A stretch of 64,000 nt of DNA, taken from Alphaproteobacteria bacterium (GTDB lineage Bacteria; Pseudomonadota; Alphaproteobacteria; Rs-D84; CACZYB01). This document shows positions 21,501 to 56,232 of the stretch, piece after piece (position 1 is the first letter of the stretch; the number at the start of each line of letters is the position of its first letter). Both the position numbers and the translations under genes were made by a program. The DNA lies in assembly GCA_051885355.1 (NCBI GenBank), contig JBJEXC010000002.1, positions 10,496-74,495 of the forward strand, in the 5' to 3' direction. The notes under the pieces were generated by a model, which worked only from the letters and a program-made list of their open reading frames with translations, was not told the origin of the DNA and made no database searches.

Positions 21501-22310
21501 ATGAGCATATTTCAAAATACAAAAATCATTTCAATAACAAATCAAAAGGGCGGGGTTGGTAAAACAACAACTGCTGTTAATCTTGCAACTGCACTTGCAA
21601 GTGTAGATAAAAAAGTTTTGGTAATTGATTTTGATCCACAAGGAAATGCAAGTACTGGACTTGGAATAGAACAAAACGACAGGATTAAAGATATTTATTC
21701 TTTATTATTTGAAAAGAATACTTTTAAAGATTCTATAAAACAAACAAAAATTAAAAATCTTGATGTAATTCCTGCATCTATTGATTTATCGGCTGCGGAA
21801 ATAGAATTATCAAATGTAGAGGATAAAACATTAAAACTTAGAAATTTATTTAAGAAAAATGTTTTTCTTTCACAATATGATTATATATTTATTGATTGTC
21901 CGCCGGCTCTTGGTTATTTAACTATAAACGCCTTGGGTGCTTCTGATTCAGTGATTATACCTTTACAATGTGAATTTTTTGCGTTGGAAGGTGTAAGTCA
22001 TCTTATGAACACAATTCAACTAGTTCAACAAAATATAAATAGTGAGTTGAAAATAGAAGGTGTAATTCTTACTATGTATGATAAAAGGAATAAACTTTCC
22101 GAACTTGTTGAAAAAGATGTAAGAAATTGTTTTGGGGAGTTTGTTTTTGATACAATTATTCCAAGAAATGTCAGAGTATCAGAGGCTCCTTCACATGGAA
22201 AACCAGTGATTTTGTATGATTTTGATTGTGCTGGAAGTCAATCTTATATAAATTTGGCTGCTGAATTTTTAACAAGAAATGAAAATAAAAATTTAAGAAA
22301 GGTTGCGTAA
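21501..22310 (+). CDS. parA: chromosome partitioning ATPase ParA (Soj)
   Basis: Deviant Walker A KGGVGKTT; 269 aa. Confidence 0.9.
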   Translation: MSIFQNTKIISITNQKGGVGKTTTAVNLATALASVDKKVLVIDFDPQGNASTGLGIEQNDRIKDIYSLLFEKNTFKDSIKQTKIKNLDVIPASIDLSAAEIELSNVEDKTLKLRNLFKKNVFLSQYDYIFIDCPPALGYLTINALGASDSVIIPLQCEFFALEGVSHLMNTIQLVQQNINSELKIEGVILTMYDKRNKLSELVEKDVRNCFGEFVFDTIIPRNVRVSEAPSHGKPVILYDFDCAGSQSYINLAAEFLTRNENKNLRKVA

Positions 22311-23213
22311 ATGAAAGTTGAAAATAGATTAGGGAAGGGATTGTCCGCCTTCTTTGAAAATAAAAATCAAGCGGTTCCTGTTTTTAATAACACAACTCAA
22401 GAAATTGTTGATACTTCTGTAAATGAAGTAAAAGAAAATTTGGAAAAGAACGGGATTTTATATATTCCTGTTGGAAATATTGTTGCAAATCCAAATCAAC
22501 CAAGAAAAGAGTTTAAAGAGGAACAACTTCGCGAACTTGCTCTTTCTATTGAAAAAAATGGCGTGTTGCAACCTATTTTAGTAAGGAAAACTTCTACACC
22601 AAATCAATTTGAAATTATTGCTGGTGAAAGAAGATGGAGAGCAGCAAACCTTGCTGGAATTTACGAAATCCCTGCTATTTTAAAAGATTTATCAGATAAA
22701 GAAACTTTTGAAATAGGATTGATTGAAAATTTACAACGCGAAAATCTTTCTCCGATAGAAGAGGGTAATGGTTATAAAAAACTTATGATAGATTTTGGTT
22801 ATACTCAAGAAGATATTGCAAAGTTGATAAATAAAAGTCGCTCTTATGTTGCGAATATTTTGCGACTTCTTGCTCTTCCAAAAGATGTGCAAGAAATGAT
22901 TTCTGATGGAAGGTTATCTTATACTGTTGCAAGAACTTTGATTGGAGAGGAAAATCCTTCTAAAAAAGCAAAATCTCTTATCAAAGGGGATATTAATGCT
23001 AGGGATGCTGAGAAGATGAAAGAGAACATTCCTGTAAATCATAAATCTTCTGATGAGCTTAATCCTGAACTTATATCTCTCAAAGATAATTTGATGGAAC
23101 ACCTTGGTGTGAATGTTGATATTAAATGTAAAAATAACAAAGGTGAGGTTATCATAAAGTTTAAGGATTTAGGTGAACTTGATACACTTATGACTAAACT
23201 AAATAATATATAA
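22311..23213 (+). CDS. parB: chromosome partitioning protein ParB (Spo0J)
   Basis: ParB box GERRWRAA and an HTH region; translationally coupled to parA. Confidence 0.9.
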   Translation: MKVENRLGKGLSAFFENKNQAVPVFNNTTQEIVDTSVNEVKENLEKNGILYIPVGNIVANPNQPRKEFKEEQLRELALSIEKNGVLQPILVRKTSTPNQFEIIAGERRWRAANLAGIYEIPAILKDLSDKETFEIGLIENLQRENLSPIEEGNGYKKLMIDFGYTQEDIAKLINKSRSYVANILRLLALPKDVQEMISDGRLSYTVARTLIGEENPSKKAKSLIKGDINARDAEKMKENIPVNHKSSDELNPELISLKDNLMEHLGVNVDIKCKNNKGEVIIKFKDLGELDTLMTKLNNI

Positions 23214-26895: not shown

Positions 26896-27552
26896 TTACC
26901 AGGATGAGCAAGAATTTTTTATACGGATATATTCTTCATCTGAATCGTGGGCTAAATTTTTATCTATTATTGCCTGTTCTAGGCGGTTTTTGAGTATATT
27001 TAGTTTTTCATCATTTTTTAATAGAATATCGATTTTTTTATTTATTTTTGTTTTTGTTGTATCGGAGGAGGTTAGAAATGGTTTTAAATTTTCAATTAAG
27101 ATTTTCATTTCATCAGTGATAAGTTTGCCGTAGTATTTAAGTTCTTCCTGATAAATATTTATATGACCTTGTTCGTGTTTTTTTATTTCATTGTATTGAC
27201 AGGTATTTTCTTTGTATTTTTCATCTATTATTACATCAAGGGAGTTATATCCTATGTTAAAATCAATAGTATTTATATTTACGCATATTCCGTTTGGTGT
27301 GGGATTTTTATCTATAGTTATAGAGTATTGAATTTGAAAATCTGCTATAGTTAGTCCCATAGTGCGTAGTGGGTTTTTGAGCCCCGATACAGCGATAATT
27401 GCTTCTTTTGGGACAAGTGTATAGGAAGGTGTGCCATAATTGATTGTAGTTGTGATTTTTGGTGTTGTTTTGAATTGGTCGCATTCTGAGTATGCAAATG
27501 TTGGAGTTGAAGTTAATAAAAATAGAGCGATTTTGATAAAATTGCTTTTCAT
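26896..27552 (-). CDS. secreted DUF922-like putative Zn-dependent protease
   Basis: Signal peptide and an HEQGH (HExxH) motif; 218 aa. Confidence 0.45.
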   Translation of the reverse strand: MKSNFIKIALFLLTSTPTFAYSECDQFKTTPKITTTINYGTPSYTLVPKEAIIAVSGLKNPLRTMGLTIADFQIQYSITIDKNPTPNGICVNINTIDFNIGYNSLDVIIDEKYKENTCQYNEIKKHEQGHINIYQEELKYYGKLITDEMKILIENLKPFLTSSDTTKTKINKKIDILLKNDEKLNILKNRLEQAIIDKNLAHDSDEEYIRIKNSCSSW

Positions 27553-27560
27553 TTTAGTGC

Positions 27561-29996
27561 CTATTTAAAATTATCAAGATAGACTTCAACAAATTTGTTT
27601 CCGTGCAATTTTCTTAATTCTTCGGCAAGGAGAACAGCCTTTCTTCCACTGTTGAATAATTGTAGGTATGGACCAAGACCAGATAAATCTATGTTTAATA
27701 TTACAGATTCATCAATAGTTGGTTTGCGGAAAAGGATGGCATATTTTAAATCCTTGTAAATTTTGCCTTGAATAAATGCCATTTCCTTTGGTGTTAGGTT
27801 CCAACTGTCGTAATCTTCTGGTCTTGCCTGAACATTACGGAAGAATATTTGTGTTTGACATTGTCCGCGGATAACCTCACCAATACCTAATTTATCAAGG
27901 ACATTAGGTTGTTGGAATGCAGCAAGGTATGCTTGGCGTTTTTTACGACCTTCCTGTAGACCTATTACAAAATTGTTGCGGAATACTGGGTTTACAAGCA
28001 TAGGTGCAGTTTCATCAATTATGATTAAACTTGGAGCACCAGTTCTGCCAGTTATATTTTGAATGCGGTTCATAATGTAACTGACAACCGCTGGGGCGAG
28101 GGTTTCATCCTCAAAAATATAAGTAAAATCAAAAGTATTGAAGCGATTTGATAAATCCAAACTGTCGGCTTCGCTGTTAAATAAAAGTCCGTATTGATTA
28201 TCATCAACCCAACGGAAAAGTTCCCTTCTCATTTTACCAGCAGGGGAAAAGCAAGATTTGTAAAGGTTTTTAAGACTTCTTTTATTTGGTTCCAAATAAT
28301 CAAAAGAAGTTGTGATTGCGCGGGCTATTTCGGCTTCGCTATTTGCATCATCAACTTGAGTGATTTCTTTTAGCCAACGACGAAGGAAGGCGCGATTTTC
28401 TGGGGTATCATCTATACGGAAAGGGTTAAGGTGTGCGGTTGTGCCACCCTTTACAACATCCTTGTCCTTTGTATCGCCTTCGAAATTTATGTATGAACCG
28501 CCGGCTGCGTAAGTGAAAATTTCTGCGCCACGGTGGCGATCGAAAAAGAATACTCTTAAATCATCGAATCGCAAAGATTGTCCGGCAAGGAAAGAGTAAA
28601 GAGTTGTTTTACCTTGACCAGTTGGACCTATTGCCACTGTATGGGCTACGGCTGCGGGTTCATCGGATACATGAAATTCAAATTGATATGCGGTTCCTTG
28701 ATATGTTGGGAATATAGCAATAGGACCATTTCCCCAGTCGCATTTTGATAAACCCTCCGGTTGGTGTTCAAAATTAAAACTTGTTGCAACTGCGCGGGAT
28801 AGCATTTTATACATTCTTGGGTATTTATCATAGGTTGGGAATTGTGAGAACCAAGAACTTTGTGCAATCCAACCTTCGCGAACTGGTGTTAATCCGTAAA
28901 GTCGGCAAATTTTTTCAATTTCAAATACGGCTTCGTCCAGACCTTTGAAACTGTCGCTTGTGATGAAAAAAGTTTCTGCATAATTAACAAGGGTTTGGTG
29001 ATCTTCGTCATTTTGTTCTATTAATGCAAGGGCATCATCAAATTGGCGTAAAACATCGTAAGAGAAAGTGCTTGAACTTGCCATTCTTCGTTGATTTACC
29101 AAAATCATTTGTGCTTTCATTTTTGGAATAGGGAATAAGTTATGTAAAACTGTTATTTCATAGTTAAGGGCGAGAATATCGGAGAGCATTTGCTCATCAA
29201 CTGTATTTGATTGTTGCTTTATACCGACAACTGCCATATATTTTTCGCGACCTCCGGAACGAAAACGAATATATCCTTTGTTAGAAAAGAATATTTCATC
29301 GGATACCATAAGTTCAGAAATATTATCAAAAACTATGTTTTCAGATTTTGGGTTAGGGCGAGATATAGGGTTTATTATATGGGCGAAAAATGTAAGTGGG
29401 CTTTCGTTTATGCCATCTTCTTTTAAAATTTTTACACCGAAGTTGGAAAGAATTGCTTCTAAGTTACTTGATGCGGTATCTAAATCCTTTAGGGCATCCT
29501 TTCTGTCGTTGACAGATATGACAATGTAATGGGAGTTTTTGAAAATTTCCTTTTGTGCTTCGCTCCATTTTTCAGAAATTTCCTTTAATACTTTGTTATC
29601 GTTGTTTATAACCTTTTCTGTTTTGACCTTTTCACGAATTGTGAAAATACGGCTTTCAATACTTATTTCAGATAAAGAATCAATCCATTTTTTTCTTTCT
29701 TCAAGCAAAGATTGTATTGTTTCACGGCGGGCAAATGCTATGCTTGCACCATGAATTTTGAAAATACGAACTAAACTTCCGTTGGAGCAGAGTATAGTTT
29801 TTTTATCATCCAATAATTTTTCAAATGGAAGGTAGTCAATAAGTCTTGTATCATAAGGGCGTGGAAGAAATAAGTTTGATTTTTTTGATATTATTACAGT
29901 TATTATTATAGCAATGGCAATAATACCCAAAATCAATGATATTGTGTAAGTGTTTGATAAGTTCATAAGTAATATTTTTGATAAGTTAAAATTCAT
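27561..29996 (-). CDS. virB4: type IV secretion system ATPase VirB4
   Basis: 811 aa; Walker A GPTGQGKTT; CagE/TrbE/VirB4 family layout; follows virB3. Confidence 0.9.
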   Translation of the reverse strand: MNFNLSKILLMNLSNTYTISLILGIIAIAIIITVIISKKSNLFLPRPYDTRLIDYLPFEKLLDDKKTILCSNGSLVRIFKIHGASIAFARRETIQSLLEERKKWIDSLSEISIESRIFTIREKVKTEKVINNDNKVLKEISEKWSEAQKEIFKNSHYIVISVNDRKDALKDLDTASSNLEAILSNFGVKILKEDGINESPLTFFAHIINPISRPNPKSENIVFDNISELMVSDEIFFSNKGYIRFRSGGREKYMAVVGIKQQSNTVDEQMLSDILALNYEITVLHNLFPIPKMKAQMILVNQRRMASSSTFSYDVLRQFDDALALIEQNDEDHQTLVNYAETFFITSDSFKGLDEAVFEIEKICRLYGLTPVREGWIAQSSWFSQFPTYDKYPRMYKMLSRAVATSFNFEHQPEGLSKCDWGNGPIAIFPTYQGTAYQFEFHVSDEPAAVAHTVAIGPTGQGKTTLYSFLAGQSLRFDDLRVFFFDRHRGAEIFTYAAGGSYINFEGDTKDKDVVKGGTTAHLNPFRIDDTPENRAFLRRWLKEITQVDDANSEAEIARAITTSFDYLEPNKRSLKNLYKSCFSPAGKMRRELFRWVDDNQYGLLFNSEADSLDLSNRFNTFDFTYIFEDETLAPAVVSYIMNRIQNITGRTGAPSLIIIDETAPMLVNPVFRNNFVIGLQEGRKKRQAYLAAFQQPNVLDKLGIGEVIRGQCQTQIFFRNVQARPEDYDSWNLTPKEMAFIQGKIYKDLKYAILFRKPTIDESVILNIDLSGLGPYLQLFNSGRKAVLLAEELRKLHGNKFVEVYLDNFK

Positions 29997-30005
29997 TTAC
30001 TTTCC

Positions 30006-30299
30006 TTATGGTGCAAATTTGTTGCCATGTTCTTTTATTAAATTTTTTGTTTTTGCCTTTATGTTTGTTCTTGCACTTATTATATTGTCAATGTGGGGTT
30101 CTTTTTTTGCAAGAAGGATAAGTAATAAATGGATTATTACTATTTGTAACATAGGAATCCATATATAACCTATAAGTCTGAAGACTAAAAAAATCATTAT
30201 TTCAACTATACCAATGGTTAAGTTGAAAATGGATAGTCCAAATGGTGCAAATAAAATTAAACTTGGATATGCAATTGATTTTAAAAGTTCTTCTTTCAA
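30006..30299 (-). CDS. virB3: type IV secretion system protein VirB3
   Basis: 97 aa, two TM helices, immediately upstream of virB4. Confidence 0.7.
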   Translation of the reverse strand: MKEELLKSIAYPSLILFAPFGLSIFNLTIGIVEIMIFLVFRLIGYIWIPMLQIVIIHLLLILLAKKEPHIDNIISARTNIKAKTKNLIKEHGNKFAP

Positions 30300-30367
30300 T
30301 ATTCCCCCCTAAATACTTATAGTAAATTTTATATGAAAAGCCTTTAAAATACAAGTAAAAATTCTAT

Positions 30368-30775
30368 TTATTTCTTGTTTTTACCAAGGCCCGTTTTTTT
30401 TGCCAGTGTGCTTCTTTTTTTTGCATAATTTGGGGCAATCATAGGATAATCAGATGGCAAGGACCATTTTTCCCTGTAATCTTTATCGCTCATATTGTAT
30501 TTTGTTTTTAAATAGCGTTTTAGCATTTTTAATTTTTTGCCGTCTTCTAAACATACTATGTATTCTGGATGGATAGAATCTTTTATATCGACAGATGGTT
30601 TAAAAGTGTAAGAAGAGGTTTTATCGGTAATTGAAATAAGGTTTGAATAAACACTTTCTATTAATTCCGCTATATTATTTTTTTCAATGGAATTATTTGA
30701 AATATAACTGCTTACTATTTGTGAAGTTGCTGATATTATTGAAAGTTGAAGATTTTCAGATATATTTTTTTTCAT
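30368..30775 (-). CDS. mucR: Ros/MucR family transcriptional regulator (zinc-ligand-deficient variant)
   Basis: The C-terminal half aligns with the Ros/MucR zinc-finger region (IVCLEDGKKLKMLKRYLKTKYNMSDKDYREKW…PMIAPNYAKKRSTLAKKTGLG). The second Cys and both His ligands are replaced by D, Y and Y. Confidence 0.75.
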   Translation of the reverse strand: MKKNISENLQLSIISATSQIVSSYISNNSIEKNNIAELIESVYSNLISITDKTSSYTFKPSVDIKDSIHPEYIVCLEDGKKLKMLKRYLKTKYNMSDKDYREKWSLPSDYPMIAPNYAKKRSTLAKKTGLGKNKK

Positions 30776-30861
30776 TTTATAACCTTTAGTTTTTAATTTT
30801 TTCTCTTGTATTATATCAAAAATTGAGGTAAAAGTAAAAGGTAAAATAATTATAAGAGGAA

Positions 30862-32133
30862 ATGATGTTTTTTGAAAATTTCTTTAATAAATTTAGTTTT
30901 GATATTCTTCCAACTCTTCCAATAGATATTTCTTTTAAAGGATTTATGTTATTGTTTTTATTTGTGTTTTTGCCTTCGTATATTGTTTATGCAAAGCAAT
31001 CGTTACAAAGGAAGATTATTTATTTATTTGATGTTTTAGATTTTTTTCTTTTTTACATTTGTATTTTTGTAAAAATTGAAGATTTTCATTTTGATAGGGG
31101 GCATTTGACTGTATTTGCAAAAACTTTGTATGTGCTTTTGTTTATTGGGGCGATTTTAGATGCGGAGGATAAAAAGTCGTATCCATATAGAAAGAAAAGT
31201 TTTTTTAAAAAGTATATTCAACATCCGCTTGAATCCTTTGCTTCACATTTTTTATATTTAATTTTTAAAATACTTCCTGTTGAGTGGGCGTCAGCATTAG
31301 GTGGTTTTTTAGGAAGAATGTTAGGGCATACACAAAGAGGGTATAATCAATTGATGGATGCAAATTTGAATATTGCTTTTCCAAGGAAAAAGGCTTCTGA
31401 TAAGGCTAAGATTAAAAAAGAGGTTTGGGATATGATGGGTAGGTATGTAAGTGAGCCTGCACATTTTAAGTATATATATAGAAATTATAAGAAATATTTA
31501 ACTTTTGAAAATGATGAAATTTTGGAAAAGTTGAAAGGGAAGCCATTTATTGCATTTATTACTCATTGTGGTAGTGTTGGGCTTATTTCTATACCGTTTG
31601 CCCTTCATCATGCAGATTGTTCTATTATTTACAAATATCCAAGTAATAATTTGACTAATAACCTTGTTACAAAATCGTTTGGAAATGGTATAGGGAATTT
31701 GAAGTTTATACCTAATACCTCTAATGGAACAAAAGATGCGATGAAGATACTTTCTTCTGGTGGGGCGATTTTGGCTGTGCCAGATCAAAAATTTATGACT
31801 GGTATTGATACAAAATTTTTTGGAGCAAAGGTGAAAAGTCCTGTTGGTGTGGCAAAACTTGCTTGTCATTTCAATTGTCCTATACTTCCTGTGCAACTTG
31901 TAAGAGAAAAGGGTGTTAAGCATAAAATTATTTTCCATGATACTTTTATGCCTTATAAATCTAAAAATAAAGAGGAAGATGCTGTAAAAACTATGCAAAA
32001 GGTGAATGATGTTATTGAAGGTTGGATTAAGCAAAATCCGTCTCAATGGTTTTGGGTTCATGATAGATGGTTTATTAAACATATTTTAAAAGCAAAAGGA
32101 GTAAAGAAAAATGCAACAAAAAACAATAAGTAG
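30862..32133 (+). CDS. lpxL: lipid A biosynthesis (Kdo2-lipid IVA) acyltransferase, LpxL/HtrB family, with extended hydrophobic N-terminus
   Basis: The C-terminal ~290 aa resemble LpxL-family acyltransferases. The N-terminal ~130 aa are polytopic. Immediately upstream of lpxC. Confidence 0.5.
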   Translation: MMFFENFFNKFSFDILPTLPIDISFKGFMLLFLFVFLPSYIVYAKQSLQRKIIYLFDVLDFFLFYICIFVKIEDFHFDRGHLTVFAKTLYVLLFIGAILDAEDKKSYPYRKKSFFKKYIQHPLESFASHFLYLIFKILPVEWASALGGFLGRMLGHTQRGYNQLMDANLNIAFPRKKASDKAKIKKEVWDMMGRYVSEPAHFKYIYRNYKKYLTFENDEILEKLKGKPFIAFITHCGSVGLISIPFALHHADCSIIYKYPSNNLTNNLVTKSFGNGIGNLKFIPNTSNGTKDAMKILSSGGAILAVPDQKFMTGIDTKFFGAKVKSPVGVAKLACHFNCPILPVQLVREKGVKHKIIFHDTFMPYKSKNKEEDAVKTMQKVNDVIEGWIKQNPSQWFWVHDRWFIKHILKAKGVKKNATKNNK

Positions 32134-32962
32134 AGAAATTGTTATTTCTGGAATTGGGCAACATAAGGGAACTGAAAATACTATTGTTTTAAAGCCTGCA
32201 GATGTTGATACTGGTATTGTCTTTAAAGTGAAAGGAAAAGAATATCCTTATAATATTAAAAATGTTTTTGGGGAAACCGGATATACTTGTGTTGGTGAAA
32301 AAGATGGTAATAATTTGAAAACTGTGGAACATCTTATTTCTACACTTAATGGACTTGGTGTTGATAATTTGATTATTGAAACAGATTCAGAGGAAGTTCC
32401 TATATGTGATGGGTCGTCAGTAAAATTTGTAGAAGAAATTGAAAAAGCCGGCTTGAAAGAGCAAAATGCTCCTAAAAAGGCGATAAAAATTTTGAAAAAA
32501 GTAACTTATACTGATGAAAAGGGTGATGTGTCGATAGAGCCATCAGAGAATAAAACTCTTACCCTTGATGTAATGATTGATTATAGTGGGGTAAAGCCTA
32601 TTGGTATTCAAAAGATAAAAATTGATTTGAATGAGGATAATTATAAAAATCTTATCAGTCCTGCACGAACATATGCAAGAATGAGTGATGTGGAATATCT
32701 TCATTCTAAGGGTTTATGTTTAGGGGCTACACTTAAAAGTGGAATTGCAGTAGATGAGGAAAAAGTTATAAATCCTGAAGGTTTGAGATTTGAAGATGAA
32801 TTTGTAAGGCATAAAGTTTTGGATGCAGTTGGTGATTTATATCTTCTTGGTCATTACATAATTGGTTATTATAAAAATAGTAAGGGTGGGCATTTCCACA
32901 ATAATCAGTTAGTAAGGGCTGTGTTATCTGATAAATCTAATTATGAAATAGTTGAGATTTAA
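32111..32962 (+). CDS. lpxC: UDP-3-O-acyl-N-acetylglucosamine deacetylase
   Basis: 283 aa; LpxC-typical N-terminus (TISREIVISGIGQHKGTENTIVLKPA…) and HKVLDAVGDLYLLG motif. Confidence 0.85.
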   Translation: MQQKTISREIVISGIGQHKGTENTIVLKPADVDTGIVFKVKGKEYPYNIKNVFGETGYTCVGEKDGNNLKTVEHLISTLNGLGVDNLIIETDSEEVPICDGSSVKFVEEIEKAGLKEQNAPKKAIKILKKVTYTDEKGDVSIEPSENKTLTLDVMIDYSGVKPIGIQKIKIDLNEDNYKNLISPARTYARMSDVEYLHSKGLCLGATLKSGIAVDEEKVINPEGLRFEDEFVRHKVLDAVGDLYLLGHYIIGYYKNSKGGHFHNNQLVRAVLSDKSNYEIVEI

Positions 32963-33440
32963 TATGATTATTATGGGGATTGATCCAGGGTTAAGGTTTA
33001 ATGGCTATGGTGTAGTAGAATATAACTCTGGCAATTTTAAGCATATTGCAAATGGGACTTTTAAAACAAATGAAAAGTTAAGTTTGGCGGAAAGGCTTTC
33101 ACAAATTTATTATAATTTGGAAGATATACTTAAAACTTATAAACCTGATGAGGTAGCGGTGGAGGAAGTATTTGTTAATGTAAATCCTTCGTCTACTTTA
33201 AAATTAGGGCAAGCAAGGGGAGTTGCGATTTTGACTCCTTCGCTTTTGGGGATACCTGTGTTTGAATATTCGCCTAATCTTATCAAAAAATCGGTGGTTG
33301 GTGTTGGTCATGCTGGAAAGGAACAAATACAGATGATGGTGAAGTTGTTGCTTTCTAATCCTAAGATAGATAGTGAGCATAGTGGTGATGCGCTTGCTAT
33401 GGCTATATGTCATGCTAATCACAGAAATTCCTTTAAATAA
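32952..33440 (+). CDS. ruvC: crossover junction endodeoxyribonuclease RuvC
   Basis: IMGIDPGLRFNGYGVVE… RNase H-like fold N-terminus and catalytic acidic residues; 162 aa. Confidence 0.85.
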   Translation: MRFNMIIMGIDPGLRFNGYGVVEYNSGNFKHIANGTFKTNEKLSLAERLSQIYYNLEDILKTYKPDEVAVEEVFVNVNPSSTLKLGQARGVAILTPSLLGIPVFEYSPNLIKKSVVGVGHAGKEQIQMMVKLLLSNPKIDSEHSGDALAMAICHANHRNSFK

Positions 33441-37483: not shown

Positions 37484-39910
37484 ATGTTAAAATTATTTGC
37501 TGAAAAATTTGGTATGGGGGGGGGTAAAAACCCTGTAAAATCAAATAGTTACAAAAACTTTGCAATCTGTCTTTGTTTAATATTTTTTATATCTCTAACT
37601 ATATTTGCTTTGTCTGGTTCTGTGAATGCGGCAAGAAATGTTAGAGGTAACAGAAATGGTGGTGTTAAAAAAACAAGTGGGGCAAAGAAAGCAGGTAATG
37701 TTAATAAATCTAATAGTAGTTCAAATAAATCTATACCTGTAAATGCTAATAGGAAGGCTAGAGCGGCTGTTACTAATAAAAGGTCTGCGACTTCAGGTAA
37801 TGCAAAAAGGGCTGGCGTTTCTGGAAATGTTAGAAAGGCTAGAGTGGTTTCTGCTAGAAAGACTGTTAATAATAGGGCGTTAAGAGGAAAAATAAAAGCC
37901 GAAGAGGAAGCAAGTTTGGAAGAGACAGAAACTTTATCCTCAGAAGTAGTAAATAAGATGTCTGAACATGATAGAAAATTTAAAAAATTAGCTGAGTTGA
38001 AAGGTTTGGCAAACGACTGTCCTGTTGAAAAGGCTCTTGGTAGAAAAATTGATGAAGATGGTGATGAATTTTTCTATACAGGAAAAGAACCTTTTAATGG
38101 AGAAAATTTTTGTGATGAAAGACTTATATTATCTAATCAAATTGCTGATTTATATAAATGGAAAGAAAGTGACAAAGAAAAATATCCTAGGGGTAGTTTG
38201 GATGATAGTGATGAAATTTTTTATTTTAAATGTAAGGAAGGTTATGTTGCTAAAAATAACAGTGATGGTATAAGGACTTGTGTATCAGTTTGTCCTTTGA
38301 ATGTTGCTTTGGAAAAAAGTGCAAGTTATGAAGATAAATATATTTCTCCAACAAATGGTTTGATTTGTTCTGTTCCAGCAAATTCAAAAGCAAGACTTGT
38401 CAAAGATGGTGAAAATACAAGAAGTGATTTGGATGATGAAAATGCTTATATAGTAGAATGTAATGCAAATAAATATTCTGCTGTGTTAGATGGTTCTGAT
38501 TCGGAAGTGCATTATCAATGTTTGACTTGTCCAAGTGGGTATGTGTCCTCTGCTGGTGCAAAATCTGTTGCTGAATGTAAGGAAGAATGTAAAGGGGATA
38601 AGATTAAACTTGATGATGGAAGTTGTGTTGCTTGTGATGCGAATGCTTCTGTATCGGGTAATTCCTGTATCTGTAAAGATGGTTATTATGGTAAGGGATA
38701 TGGAACTGATGGATGTGTGACTTGTCCTTCTGGATATGTATGTTCTGGTGGTGAAAAGAAATCCAAATATGTAAGTGAACAGGCGGAAGAAACATCATCC
38801 AATGAACAACAATCTTGTCCAGAGGGTTCAAAACCTTCCTCTGATGGCACAACTTGTGTTTGTGATGATAGTAATTATACTTTTGATTCAAAATCCAATA
38901 GTTGTGTGGAAAAAGTTTGTGGTTCAAATGAAGTTAAAATGTCAGATGGAACTTGTAAAGCAATATCTAGTTTGGTTGCATCTGAATTTAACAGAGTTGC
39001 CACAGGAAAATCTGGTAATTCCAATTGTCCAACTGGTGATTTGGAGGCTGGTGTCTACTTAGTTACACTTAAAGGTGGTAATGGTGGAAACAGCGGTAGT
39101 AGTGGAAAAAATAAGGCTGGTCAAACAGAGAAAGATGTTTCCGGTGGAAAGGGTGCAAAATTGCAATATGTATTTAAGTTGAGTAAAAATGCAACTTTTG
39201 AAATTTGTGCCGGTGAAAATGGTAAATTGCCTGCTGATACAGATTCTCCAAATGAAGGAGGCGGTGGCGGTGGTGGATCATGGCTTAACATTAATTCACC
39301 TGAATTTTCTGGCGATGTCTACTTTGTTGCCGGTGGTGGTGGCGGTGCATCCGCAGACTATGCTGGTCAAGACGGCGGTGGCGGCGGTGGCGGCGGCGGT
39401 ATTGGTGCCGGTGGTGCTGCTGGTGAAGGTAAAGGTTATAGTTATGGTGGTTACGGTGGTATGAGTGGAAAATACCCTGGTGGAGTATACAAGCAATATA
39501 ATGATAATAATAAAAGTGGTGTAACAAAACTTTACGGTTACATACCTGATATTGCGAAGGGTTTAAATGACAGTAATCCGCTTTTGATGGGTGATTCTGG
39601 TAGAAGCGGTGGTGGTGCCGGTGGTGGAAATGGTGGTGACGGTGGTGACGGTCAAGAATGGTTTGGTAACGCTAATTGTGCAAAGGGTGCTGTTGCAAAT
39701 ATAGATACTATAAACATTATTGACTTTGACGGTAAAGTTACAAAGCAAAGCCAACAATACGGTGGTAAAGGTGGTGTTGCTTGTCAAGCCTCTCACCATA
39801 GAGCCGGATATGATGGTGAAAGTTCACATATTTCGAATATAAACCTTTCGAATTTATGTGGTGGAAGCAATAAGGCTGATGCCTGTGCTGAACTTTACAA
39901 GTTAAAATAA
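37484..39910 (+). CDS. large secreted/anchored protein: basic low-complexity region, Cys-rich ephrin-receptor/TNFR-like repeats, C-terminal polyglycine-rich (ALK/LTK GlyR-like) domain
   Basis: 808 aa. TM/signal segment at aa 26-48, then a K/R/N-rich stretch. More than 40 Cys in CxxCPSGY-type repeats, for example TCVTCPSGYVCSGG. The C-terminus has G6-G10 runs spaced by short beta-like strands (YVFKLSKNATFEICAGENGK / EGGGGGGGSW / VYFVAGGGGGAS / GGGGGGGGGIGAGG). Confidence 0.6.
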   Translation: MLKLFAEKFGMGGGKNPVKSNSYKNFAICLCLIFFISLTIFALSGSVNAARNVRGNRNGGVKKTSGAKKAGNVNKSNSSSNKSIPVNANRKARAAVTNKRSATSGNAKRAGVSGNVRKARVVSARKTVNNRALRGKIKAEEEASLEETETLSSEVVNKMSEHDRKFKKLAELKGLANDCPVEKALGRKIDEDGDEFFYTGKEPFNGENFCDERLILSNQIADLYKWKESDKEKYPRGSLDDSDEIFYFKCKEGYVAKNNSDGIRTCVSVCPLNVALEKSASYEDKYISPTNGLICSVPANSKARLVKDGENTRSDLDDENAYIVECNANKYSAVLDGSDSEVHYQCLTCPSGYVSSAGAKSVAECKEECKGDKIKLDDGSCVACDANASVSGNSCICKDGYYGKGYGTDGCVTCPSGYVCSGGEKKSKYVSEQAEETSSNEQQSCPEGSKPSSDGTTCVCDDSNYTFDSKSNSCVEKVCGSNEVKMSDGTCKAISSLVASEFNRVATGKSGNSNCPTGDLEAGVYLVTLKGGNGGNSGSSGKNKAGQTEKDVSGGKGAKLQYVFKLSKNATFEICAGENGKLPADTDSPNEGGGGGGGSWLNINSPEFSGDVYFVAGGGGGASADYAGQDGGGGGGGGGIGAGGAAGEGKGYSYGGYGGMSGKYPGGVYKQYNDNNKSGVTKLYGYIPDIAKGLNDSNPLLMGDSGRSGGGAGGGNGGDGGDGQEWFGNANCAKGAVANIDTINIIDFDGKVTKQSQQYGGKGGVACQASHHRAGYDGESSHISNINLSNLCGGSNKADACAELYKLK
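37516..37524 (+). repeat. G9 homopolymeric tract in the 5' coding region
   Basis: atGGGGGGGGGt encodes MGGGK; nine consecutive G in an ~30% GC genome. Confidence 0.8.
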
Positions 39911-51356: not shown

Positions 51357-51382
51357 TCCCCTCACTAAAGGGGATTTTTTTT
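51357..51382. terminator. bidirectional rho-independent terminator
   Basis: tcccct-cactaa-agggga hairpin followed by T8; the stop of the convergent minus-strand gene abuts it. Confidence 0.6.
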
Positions 51383-52172
51383 ACCTTTCTTTGTTTTGTA
51401 TTTTAAACAGAATATTATTAAAGTTTTCTAATTTATTAGATATATGTATTTTTTTATTTTCATTTTTTGAAAGAAATTCTGAACCAATATAGGTTGCTGA
51501 TGGAAGATAAATTTTTTCCATTATTTTATTATTATAAAGAACAAAATTTCCAATATATTTTGCTTTTGGAACATTAAGTATTTTCATATTTTTATTATTG
51601 AAAAATGCGGTATCTGAAATTTTTAGTGCATTTGGGAAATTTGCTTCCTCTAAATCTTTATCAAGATATAAAAATGATGTTGGAATTTCTTTTGCTTTTG
51701 TAAAATTGATACGGATTAATTTATTATCCTTTACTTCAACAATCGGAGACCCATCTGCTGCAATAATTTTTTTACCGGTTACATCAAGTCCAAGATATGA
51801 GATGATACTTACTGTTTTATTTTTAATTTCATTATTAAATACTTTTACAAAAGAATCGCTATGATTTTTTTCTGTTATAACCTCATTTTTTAAAGTAGAT
51901 AATCTTAATGACAATAAATCAGTTAAAGTATTTTTTTCCAAGTTGAATAAGAAATGTGAAAAAATAATTTCATTTGATTGTAATTCGTGAAGTGCTACTA
52001 AGTCGTTATCTTGAATTACAAAAGTATTACTGTTTGTAAAGATAGATGTATATGTATTAAAATATTCTTTATCTGTAAAAATGGTATCTCTAATATCCTT
52101 AAAATATATTCTTGTTGTATCATTTTTATAATTTGGTTTGATGATTGTATCTGATAATTTGAAAATTTCCAT
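51381..52172 (-). CDS. hypothetical protein, possible BspA-type leucine-rich-repeat (LRR_5-like) protein
   Basis: The C-terminal half has repeated I..AF..N..L..I.LP....IG..F-like units (ISDTAFFNNKNMKILNVPKAKYIGNFVL…IYLPSATYIGSEFL). Confidence 0.35.
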   Translation of the reverse strand: MEIFKLSDTIIKPNYKNDTTRIYFKDIRDTIFTDKEYFNTYTSIFTNSNTFVIQDNDLVALHELQSNEIIFSHFLFNLEKNTLTDLLSLRLSTLKNEVITEKNHSDSFVKVFNNEIKNKTVSIISYLGLDVTGKKIIAADGSPIVEVKDNKLIRINFTKAKEIPTSFLYLDKDLEEANFPNALKISDTAFFNNKNMKILNVPKAKYIGNFVLYNNKIMEKIYLPSATYIGSEFLSKNENKKIHISNKLENFNNILFKIQNKER

Positions 52173-55236: not shown

Positions 55237-56232
55237 ATGAACAATAGAAAATATATTATATCGGCAATAACTTTGTTGAGTTTTGCTGGAATTGCACATT
55301 CTGCGATTTATCAGTGTAGGACTTGTCAAGAGGGAACTTATAGTGATGGAACAAGCACAAGTTGTACGGCGTGTCCGTCTGGGGCTGTGTGTCCAGAGGG
55401 AACTGGGGCACCAATTTATTTATCCAAATATAAAGATAAAATATTTTCAGCATGTGGAGAAATAGGTAAAGATTTTGTTAAGAATGGGACTATTTCGTGG
55501 AAAAAATATTATTCATCAGACTTTATTATTGATATGCGTGATAGGCAAAAAGTAAAAATAAATTCTGATGGAAATATAATTAAAAAGGGAGCAAGTGGTT
55601 ATAATTCCGCACGAGCATATCATGAAGTTAATTGTTATGACCTTGATGGGTATTATGAAAGTGATGGATATAAATCTGTTGTAGATGAGATTCATGGTCT
55701 GTGTGGTGATATTGTACAAATATCGAAATTTACCACAGGAAGTGGTAGTTTTACTTTGTCCCCTGGAATATATTATATTAACATTGGTGGCGCCGGTGGT
55801 GGTGGTGGTGGCGGACATTATTGTCCTGAATTTATGCATATTATACATAAAGATGGTGGTAATGGAGGAAGTGGAGAATACATAAGCAAGGTTATTTATA
55901 TATTAAAATCGACTTCATTTTCTTATAATGTTGGTACAGGAGGAAATGGAGGAAGTGGTAGAAGATGTAGCTGTTCTGATGCGGGAGAGCGCGGTGGAAA
56001 TTCATATGTATCTAATACTCTTCTTTCTTTATCAATTACAGCAAGAGGTGGTGCCGGTGGTGGACGAGCATGTGAAAGTGGAAGCACAGATGCTACAGAT
56101 TTAGGATTAGGAGGAAAAGGTGGTCTCGGTGGAAAAGGTAGTAAAACGGGTCACTATGATAGAGGAAGTAATGGAGAAAATGGTTACATAGAAATTAAAC
56201 AATTTATATATAGTCAATGGTGTGCCAAATAA
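55237..56232 (+). CDS. secreted Cys-rich / polyglycine-rich (ALK/LTK GlyR-like) protein, paralog of the 37484 gene product
   Basis: Signal peptide (…GIAHS/AI), CRTCQEGTY…CTACPSGAVCPEGT Cys-repeat, then IYYINIGGAGGGGGGGHY…GGNGGSG…GGNGGSG…GGAGGG…GGKGGLGGKG glycine runs. Confidence 0.6.
   Translation: MNNRKYIISAITLLSFAGIAHSAIYQCRTCQEGTYSDGTSTSCTACPSGAVCPEGTGAPIYLSKYKDKIFSACGEIGKDFVKNGTISWKKYYSSDFIIDMRDRQKVKINSDGNIIKKGASGYNSARAYHEVNCYDLDGYYESDGYKSVVDEIHGLCGDIVQISKFTTGSGSFTLSPGIYYINIGGAGGGGGGGHYCPEFMHIIHKDGGNGGSGEYISKVIYILKSTSFSYNVGTGGNGGSGRRCSCSDAGERGGNSYVSNTLLSLSITARGGAGGGRACESGSTDATDLGLGGKGGLGGKGSKTGHYDRGSNGENGYIEIKQFIYSQWCAK

Follow-up and report, generated by a model that had tools for sequence, protein, structure and literature searches.

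The 64-kb stretch of alphaproteobacterial DNA analysed here (the window) encodes a regulator of the Ros/MucR family that carries Cys, Asp, Tyr, Lys, and Tyr (C-D-Y-K-Y) at the zinc-ligand positions of the family. The whole is probably best explained as a general chromosome-organising MucR with a zinc-free DNA-binding domain, positioned beside a separate, self-promoted unit of three genes, virB3-virB4-orf218. The mucR-like gene (30368–30775, minus strand) is chromosomal and vertically inherited, in an uncultured, low-GC (~32%) alphaproteobacterium. It is conserved and already annotated; the NCBI entry MGN0929130.1 (“MucR family transcriptional regulator”) is an identical protein. Its ligand pattern is uncharacterised and has become fixed in a clade of uncultured, low-GC alphaproteobacteria. 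A preliminary description of positions 30006–30775 had placed mucR directly upstream of virB3-virB4, genes of a type IV secretion system (T4SS), on the same strand. This placement is correct, and the span comprises mucR plus virB3.

The product, found in the open reading frame (ORF) list and with Pfam, is a full-length Ros/MucR protein of 135 amino acids (aa) with a predicted isoelectric point of 9.6. It belongs to the Ros/MucR family, matching positions 2–123 of the 123-position Pfam profile ROS_MUCR (PF05443) with an E-value of 5.3e-44 and a score of 149.6 bits (cutoff, 25.4 bits). The C-terminal DNA-binding domain (residues 59–135; 30371–30601, minus strand) is homologous to Ros87, the phmmer match in the PDB (2jsp_A; E-value 1.3e-23). 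The two align over 77 residues at 53% identity with no gaps, and Ros of Agrobacterium tumefaciens (PDB 2JSP) is the Cys2His2 prototype. The N-terminal oligomerisation domain (residues 1–54; 30614–30775, minus strand) is a two-helix hairpin, and the AlphaFold2 model predicts its helices at residues 7–27 and 32–54 with a predicted local distance difference test score of 91–94. Confidence in the model of the DNA-binding domain is moderate, and structural comparison and fold searches with it were uninformative, not confirming a Ros-type fold.

In the gapless alignment, Ros87 residues C24, C27, H37, H41, and H42 (C79, C82, H92, H96, and H97 of full-length Ros) pair with C75, D78, Y88, K92, and Y93. 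The residues were also read directly from the minus-strand codons: tgt for C75 (30551–30553), gac for D78 (30542–30544), tat for Y88 (30512–30514), and, at the fourth-ligand positions, aaa for K92 (30500–30502) and tac for Y93 (30497–30499). Alignment and codons thus bear out the claim that three of the four Ros zinc ligands are substituted (D78, Y88, and Y93), and only the first of the four is kept. The protein contains a single Cys (C75) and a single His (H69), the latter not conserved among relatives. The alignment with Ros, which had been proposed as a check, places no other Cys or His at the ligand positions. Therefore, in place of a complete zinc set (Cys, Cys or Asp, His, His) the protein presents C75, D78, Y88, and K92/Y93.

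Two of these three substitutions, D78 and Y93, are not unusual; what is unusual is Y88 at ligand 3 with neither fourth-ligand position occupied by His. Asp is what Ros/MucR proteins usually carry at ligand 2, and in Ml1-3 and Brucella MucR this residue coordinates zinc (PMC9779718; PMC5745721). The zinc site of Brucella MucR is formed by C80, D83, H93, and H97, with Y98 following (PMC11662661). Because this zinc-binding protein has a Tyr at the position of Ros His97, the Tyr found there in the present protein is normal for the family as well. Judged by sequence comparison, the distinguishing feature is Tyr in place of His at ligand 3, combined with Lys-Tyr at ligand 4.

Of 91 loci from genomes and metagenomes, most have the pattern C-D-H-x-Y. 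The pattern C-D-Y-x-Y also occurs in a few unrelated lineages (metagenome-assembled genomes), namely in Erythrobacteraceae (loci L015 and L080), in Micavibrio (L054), and at loci L026 and L061. Within the best 120 homologs, 66 carry a Tyr at ligand 3. In this clade, 34 of the 66 proteins are without any His, 53 have a single Cys, and 44 keep the Tyr-Lys-Tyr arrangement. Phe is present at ligand 4 in 12 of them and at ligand 1 in one. Cys75 and Asp78 are nearly invariant in the homolog alignment. Phenylalanine is unable to bind metal. Because it occurs at the former ligand positions, the simplest reading is that the residues there serve for packing.

The DNA-binding domain would most likely fold without zinc, by analogy with Ml4 and Ml5 of Mesorhizobium loti but via a different route. 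We favor this reading because the histidine ligands are lost (C-D-Y-K-Y here, C-D-H-H-Y in Brucella MucR). The suggestion of a zinc-free or alternative-ligand MucR variant has accordingly gained in strength: there is no alternative Cys or His, and the clade with Tyr at ligand 3 is often His-less and accepts Phe at ligands 4 and 1. That Ml4 and Ml5 fold and bind DNA without zinc has been established experimentally (PMC9779718; PMC5693944; PMC11662661). As in those proteins, the ligand set is incomplete here, and folding by polar and hydrophobic contacts, DNA binding, and oligomerisation are to be expected. In Ml5 the first Cys is replaced by Ser (PMC11662661), whereas in the present protein Cys75 is kept and the histidines are lost. 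Moreover, the M. loti genome has ten copies, Ml4 and Ml5 being extra paralogs, whereas the present gene seems to belong to a conserved housekeeping context and is found clade-wide. There is no second mucR in the window.

The closest parallel at the fourth-ligand positions is provided by MucR2 and MucR3 of Sinorhizobium meliloti, described in 2026, in which K118 and Y119 correspond to K92 and Y93; the Lys-Tyr pair is needed for the fold of MucR2 (PMC13297338). Unlike the present protein, MucR2 and MucR3 are plasmid-borne, keep the third-ligand His, and bind zinc. One may ask whether the present domain still binds metal through Cys75, Asp78, Tyr88, and Tyr93, as an extension of the Cys-Asp-His-Tyr sphere of MucR2 and MucR3, possibly with another metal preference. 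We consider this unlikely. It would account for the near invariance of Cys75 and Asp78 and for the Tyr-Lys-Tyr arrangement in 44 of the 66 clade members, and it finds a precedent in Tyr119 of MucR2, a proposed fourth ligand (the K118A/Y119A mutant unfolds), but zinc binding by MucR2 was demonstrated through the very His that is missing here (PMC13297338). In addition, Cys75 and Asp78 are kept in the family for fold reasons too, and Phe takes the place of Tyr93 in 12 members of the clade and that of Cys75 in one. To our knowledge, a structural zinc site with two tyrosinates has not been established.

The remaining parts of the protein resemble those of a classical MucR. The spacing of V21, Y24, and I25 and of I35, L38, and I39 equals that of V22, Y25, and V26 and of L36, L39, and I40 of Brucella MucR, as a residue pattern and not as an alignment, and the Brucella residues are needed for oligomerisation (PMC11662661). 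Ile39 stands at the position where the monomeric MucR2 carries Thr; MucR2 and MucR3, with Thr at this oligomerisation position, show no DNA bridging. An alignment of 41 homologs contains 22 invariant columns, including basic residues in the DNA-contact regions: K83, R87, and R121 are invariant, and K80, K81, K86, and K126 are nearly so. The ratio of nonsynonymous to synonymous substitution rates (dN/dS) of mucR is 0.12 against the 87% identical homolog at locus L086 and 0.16 against the 72% identical homolog at L001. The gene is under purifying selection.

Compared with Brucella abortus MucR, the protein shares the two-domain layout, the spacing of the oligomerisation residues, Cys and Asp as ligands 1 and 2, and the Tyr after the fourth ligand, and the gene is likewise chromosomal. 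The linker is four residues shorter. The principal difference is at the metal site, where the Brucella protein binds zinc via His93 and His97 and the present protein has Tyr88 and Lys92. A second difference concerns the host, whose GC content is ~32%, so that favoring AT-rich DNA would do little to set targets apart.

We infer the following picture, in which the absence of zinc, oligomerisation, DNA binding, autoregulation, and transcriptional read-through are all inferred steps. The two tyrosines would pack into the former metal site of the DNA-binding domain. The protein would work as a classical MucR does, as an oligomeric, H-NS-like binder of AT-rich DNA, and would repress many promoters, its own strongly conserved promoter included. 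The virB3-virB4-orf218 genes would form a separate, self-promoted unit, to whose transcription read-through from the mucR promoter may add.

The promoter assigned to mucR lies within a conserved block of 47 bp (30798–30844, minus strand; TTACCTTTTACTTTTACC..TGATATAATACAAGAGAAAAA). It consists of a −35 element, TTTACT (30838–30833), and an extended −10 element, TGnTATAAT (30818–30810), and scores 10/12, with the TG, in the promoter scan. The block stays near-invariant even in relatives whose MucR identity is as low as 57%, whereas its flanks diverge. Tandem CTTTTAC/TTTTACC half-repeats cover the −35 element, and the conservation is unusually strong for intergenic DNA. These features fit and suggest a conserved promoter with a putative operator. 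Binding of MucR proteins to their own promoters is known (PMC5881533). The repeat core occurs as an exact copy only at mucR in the window; other matches in the window need three mismatches and lie mostly in coding DNA, and the repeat core was rejected as a regulon motif.

Divergent from mucR is a cluster of three plus-strand genes identified with Pfam: an lpxL-like acyltransferase gene (30862–32133), lpxC (32111–32962), and ruvC (32952–33440). The lpxL-like protein, of 423 aa, has its Pfam domain from residue 115 and thus a hydrophobic N-terminal extension of ~110 aa, which is kept in relatives (420–425 aa). The 3′ end of its gene overlaps the start of lpxC by 23 nucleotides (nt).

On the other side, mucR is followed by virB3-virB4-orf218. 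The virB3-like gene (30006–30299, minus strand) encodes 97 aa and has a TTG start preceded by a Shine-Dalgarno sequence, AGGGGGG (30304–30310). Its match to the Pfam VirB3 profile is below threshold (E-value 0.002; 18.8 bits, with the cutoff at 23.9), and its identity rests mainly on its size, its two hydrophobic segments, and its position; it always precedes virB4 in relatives, and here it ends 9 nt ahead of it. The virB4 gene (27561–29996, minus strand) encodes an ATPase of 811 aa with a Walker A motif, GPTGQGKT, and a Walker B motif, LIIIDE. Its assignment is solid: it matches Pfam CagE_TrbE_VirB (4e-15), TIGR00929 (1e-116, below the curated cutoff), and TrwK in the PDB (3e-35). VirB4 is 97% identical at L086 and 88% identical at L001, with a dN/dS of 0.03–0.055. 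Purifying selection on VirB4 is very strong, as seen in its 97% identity where MucR is 87% identical. The third member of the conserved unit, orf218 (26896–27552, minus strand), starts 8 nt after virB4 and encodes a secreted or periplasmic protein of 218 aa with an HExxH motif. No other T4SS genes (virB6, virB8-11, or virD4) are found in the 64-kb window. The unit stands alone amid housekeeping genes, and the rest of the apparatus, if any, must be elsewhere in the genome.

The two sides of mucR differ in their conservation among relatives. In every relative examined, mucR is divergent from lpxL-lpxC-ruvC (arrangement in L001 and L081–L091). The virB3-virB4-orf218 unit lies behind mucR only in the closest clade, in which MucR is at least 72% identical. 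This clade includes four sequence types, with MucR identities of 100, 87, 84, and 72% and a mucR-virB3 spacer of 68–69 or 186 nt. Downstream of mucR lies dnaJ at 63–65% MucR identity and an unknown gene of 376 aa at 57%; mucR stands without virB at L081–L085. Neither virB3 nor virB4 is present within 6 kb of mucR in any of the other 79 species-representative genome loci. Conversely, a scan for VirB4 relatives found the virB3-virB4-orf218 trio (VirB4 70–82% identical) without mucR at no fewer than seven metagenomic loci (L092–L098 and L102), where the trio is preceded by, among others, a gene for a 185-aa membrane protein, prfB, or an unknown ORF. The regulator and the T4SS genes do not, in other words, co-occur across relatives.

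From these gene orders we propose that a lineage-specific rearrangement brought virB3-virB4-orf218 next to mucR in a narrow lineage. They are also consistent with, and suggest, a local inversion of the virB unit, in a region that also holds parAB, dnaN, and gidA. At L095, virB3 is preceded by parB, encoded on the same strand (L095 12–632); in the window, parAB lies beyond orf218 (21501–23213, plus strand).

A candidate promoter of virB3, TTGTAT-17-TAAAAT (30326–30354, minus strand), lies inside the 68-nt mucR-virB3 spacer. It scores 8/12, which is under the scan threshold. The arrangement CTTG(T/C)xT-16/17-TA(T/A)AAT recurs 17–26 nt before the virB3 start at L001, L090, L092–L098, and L102, including the loci that lack mucR. 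The preliminary description had named a separate virB3 promoter, with no MucR-dependent regulation, as an observation that would speak against its view of the locus, and, as far as sequence analysis goes, this conserved candidate element in the spacer would be such a promoter. The mucR-virB3 spacer contains neither a terminator-like site nor significant RNA structure (fold z-score −1.09), and read-through from mucR into virB3 is thus possible. A weak long-range stem in this spacer is not conserved at L086 and was discarded.

The preliminary description had taken the protein for a dedicated H-NS-like silencer of the secretion apparatus. On this account mucR and virB3-virB4 would share an operon, and MucR would act at the spacers next to it, as could be supposed from the shared strand, the 68-nt spacer with no terminator-like site, the adjacency kept in the closest clade, and the known binding, in Brucella and Agrobacterium, of MucR/Ros proteins to vir and virB promoters (PMC9779718; PMC7277663). 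Binding of B. abortus MucR, however, barely affects virB expression (PMC7277663). In addition, mucR is anchored to lpxL-lpxC-ruvC and has the same position and promoter also where no virB3 follows it and dnaJ or an unknown gene lies downstream, and the virB trio occurs elsewhere without mucR and with its own conserved promoter-like element. Nor are the spacers unusually AT-rich. Both had been singled out as places to search for AT-rich MucR sites, and their AT content and T-A steps are no higher than those of 25 other intergenic regions (GC of 22% and 19% for the two mucR-flanking spacers; intergenic mean 24%, standard deviation 7), a comparison that has no power in this low-GC genome. Because synteny varies among relatives, a role in T4SS regulation is not to be read from position. 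We therefore regard a dedicated T4SS regulator as improbable, while a global MucR may regulate virB3.

That the protein is a decaying or non-DNA-binding remnant, in which loss of ligands means loss of function, might be argued from the absence of three of the four canonical ligands and from the modest confidence of the domain model, but it is very improbable in view of the dN/dS of 0.12–0.16, the 22 invariant columns with their basic DNA-contact regions, the strongly conserved mucR promoter, and the fixation of the variant across a broad clade; a pseudogene is rejected on the dN/dS and the residue conservation.

The rest of the window (~32% GC) is occupied by housekeeping genes, among them parAB, gidA, dnaN, tig, infB, nusA, tsf, and rpsB. 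The GC skew is positive nearly throughout. Because the cumulative skew climbs steadily, the window falls within a single replichore and shows no skew switch, although it carries parAB, dnaN, and gidA. An 808-aa ORF (37484–39910, plus strand) and a 263-aa ORF (51381–52172, minus strand) have no match in Pfam or NCBIfam. In a 331-aa protein (55237–56232, plus strand), a Cys-rich, TNFR/NCD3G-like N-terminus is joined to a Gly_rich_2 domain, and related Gly_rich_2 proteins flank the equivalent region at L086.

A bolder scenario can be formulated, to which we assign a low probability as a whole. A whole clade of low-GC alphaproteobacteria would have retained Cys and Asp but exchanged the structural zinc site of its sole MucR, in an essential context, for a Tyr-Lys-Tyr cluster. 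This would give the fold its third natural solution or else amount to a Cys-Asp-Tyr-Tyr metal site without precedent, and one sublineage would in addition have mucR transcriptionally fused to virB3-virB4. If this fusion were true, expression of the secretion system in that sublineage would follow the autoregulated level of a nucleoid protein.

For secretion-system biology, the locus is a caution, in that adjacency here reflects a recent rearrangement and should not on its own be taken for a regulatory circuit. For the organism, it raises the question of the role of an AT-preferring silencer in a genome that is ~68% AT throughout. For the family, the clade with Tyr at ligand 3 is a natural experiment for prokaryotic zinc fingers, in which the His is gone, the Cys and Asp are kept, and Tyr or Phe occupies the site. 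The clade bears on the recent claim that selection favors zinc-bound domains (PMC11662661), and it could reveal what stabilises the Ros fold in the absence of metal.
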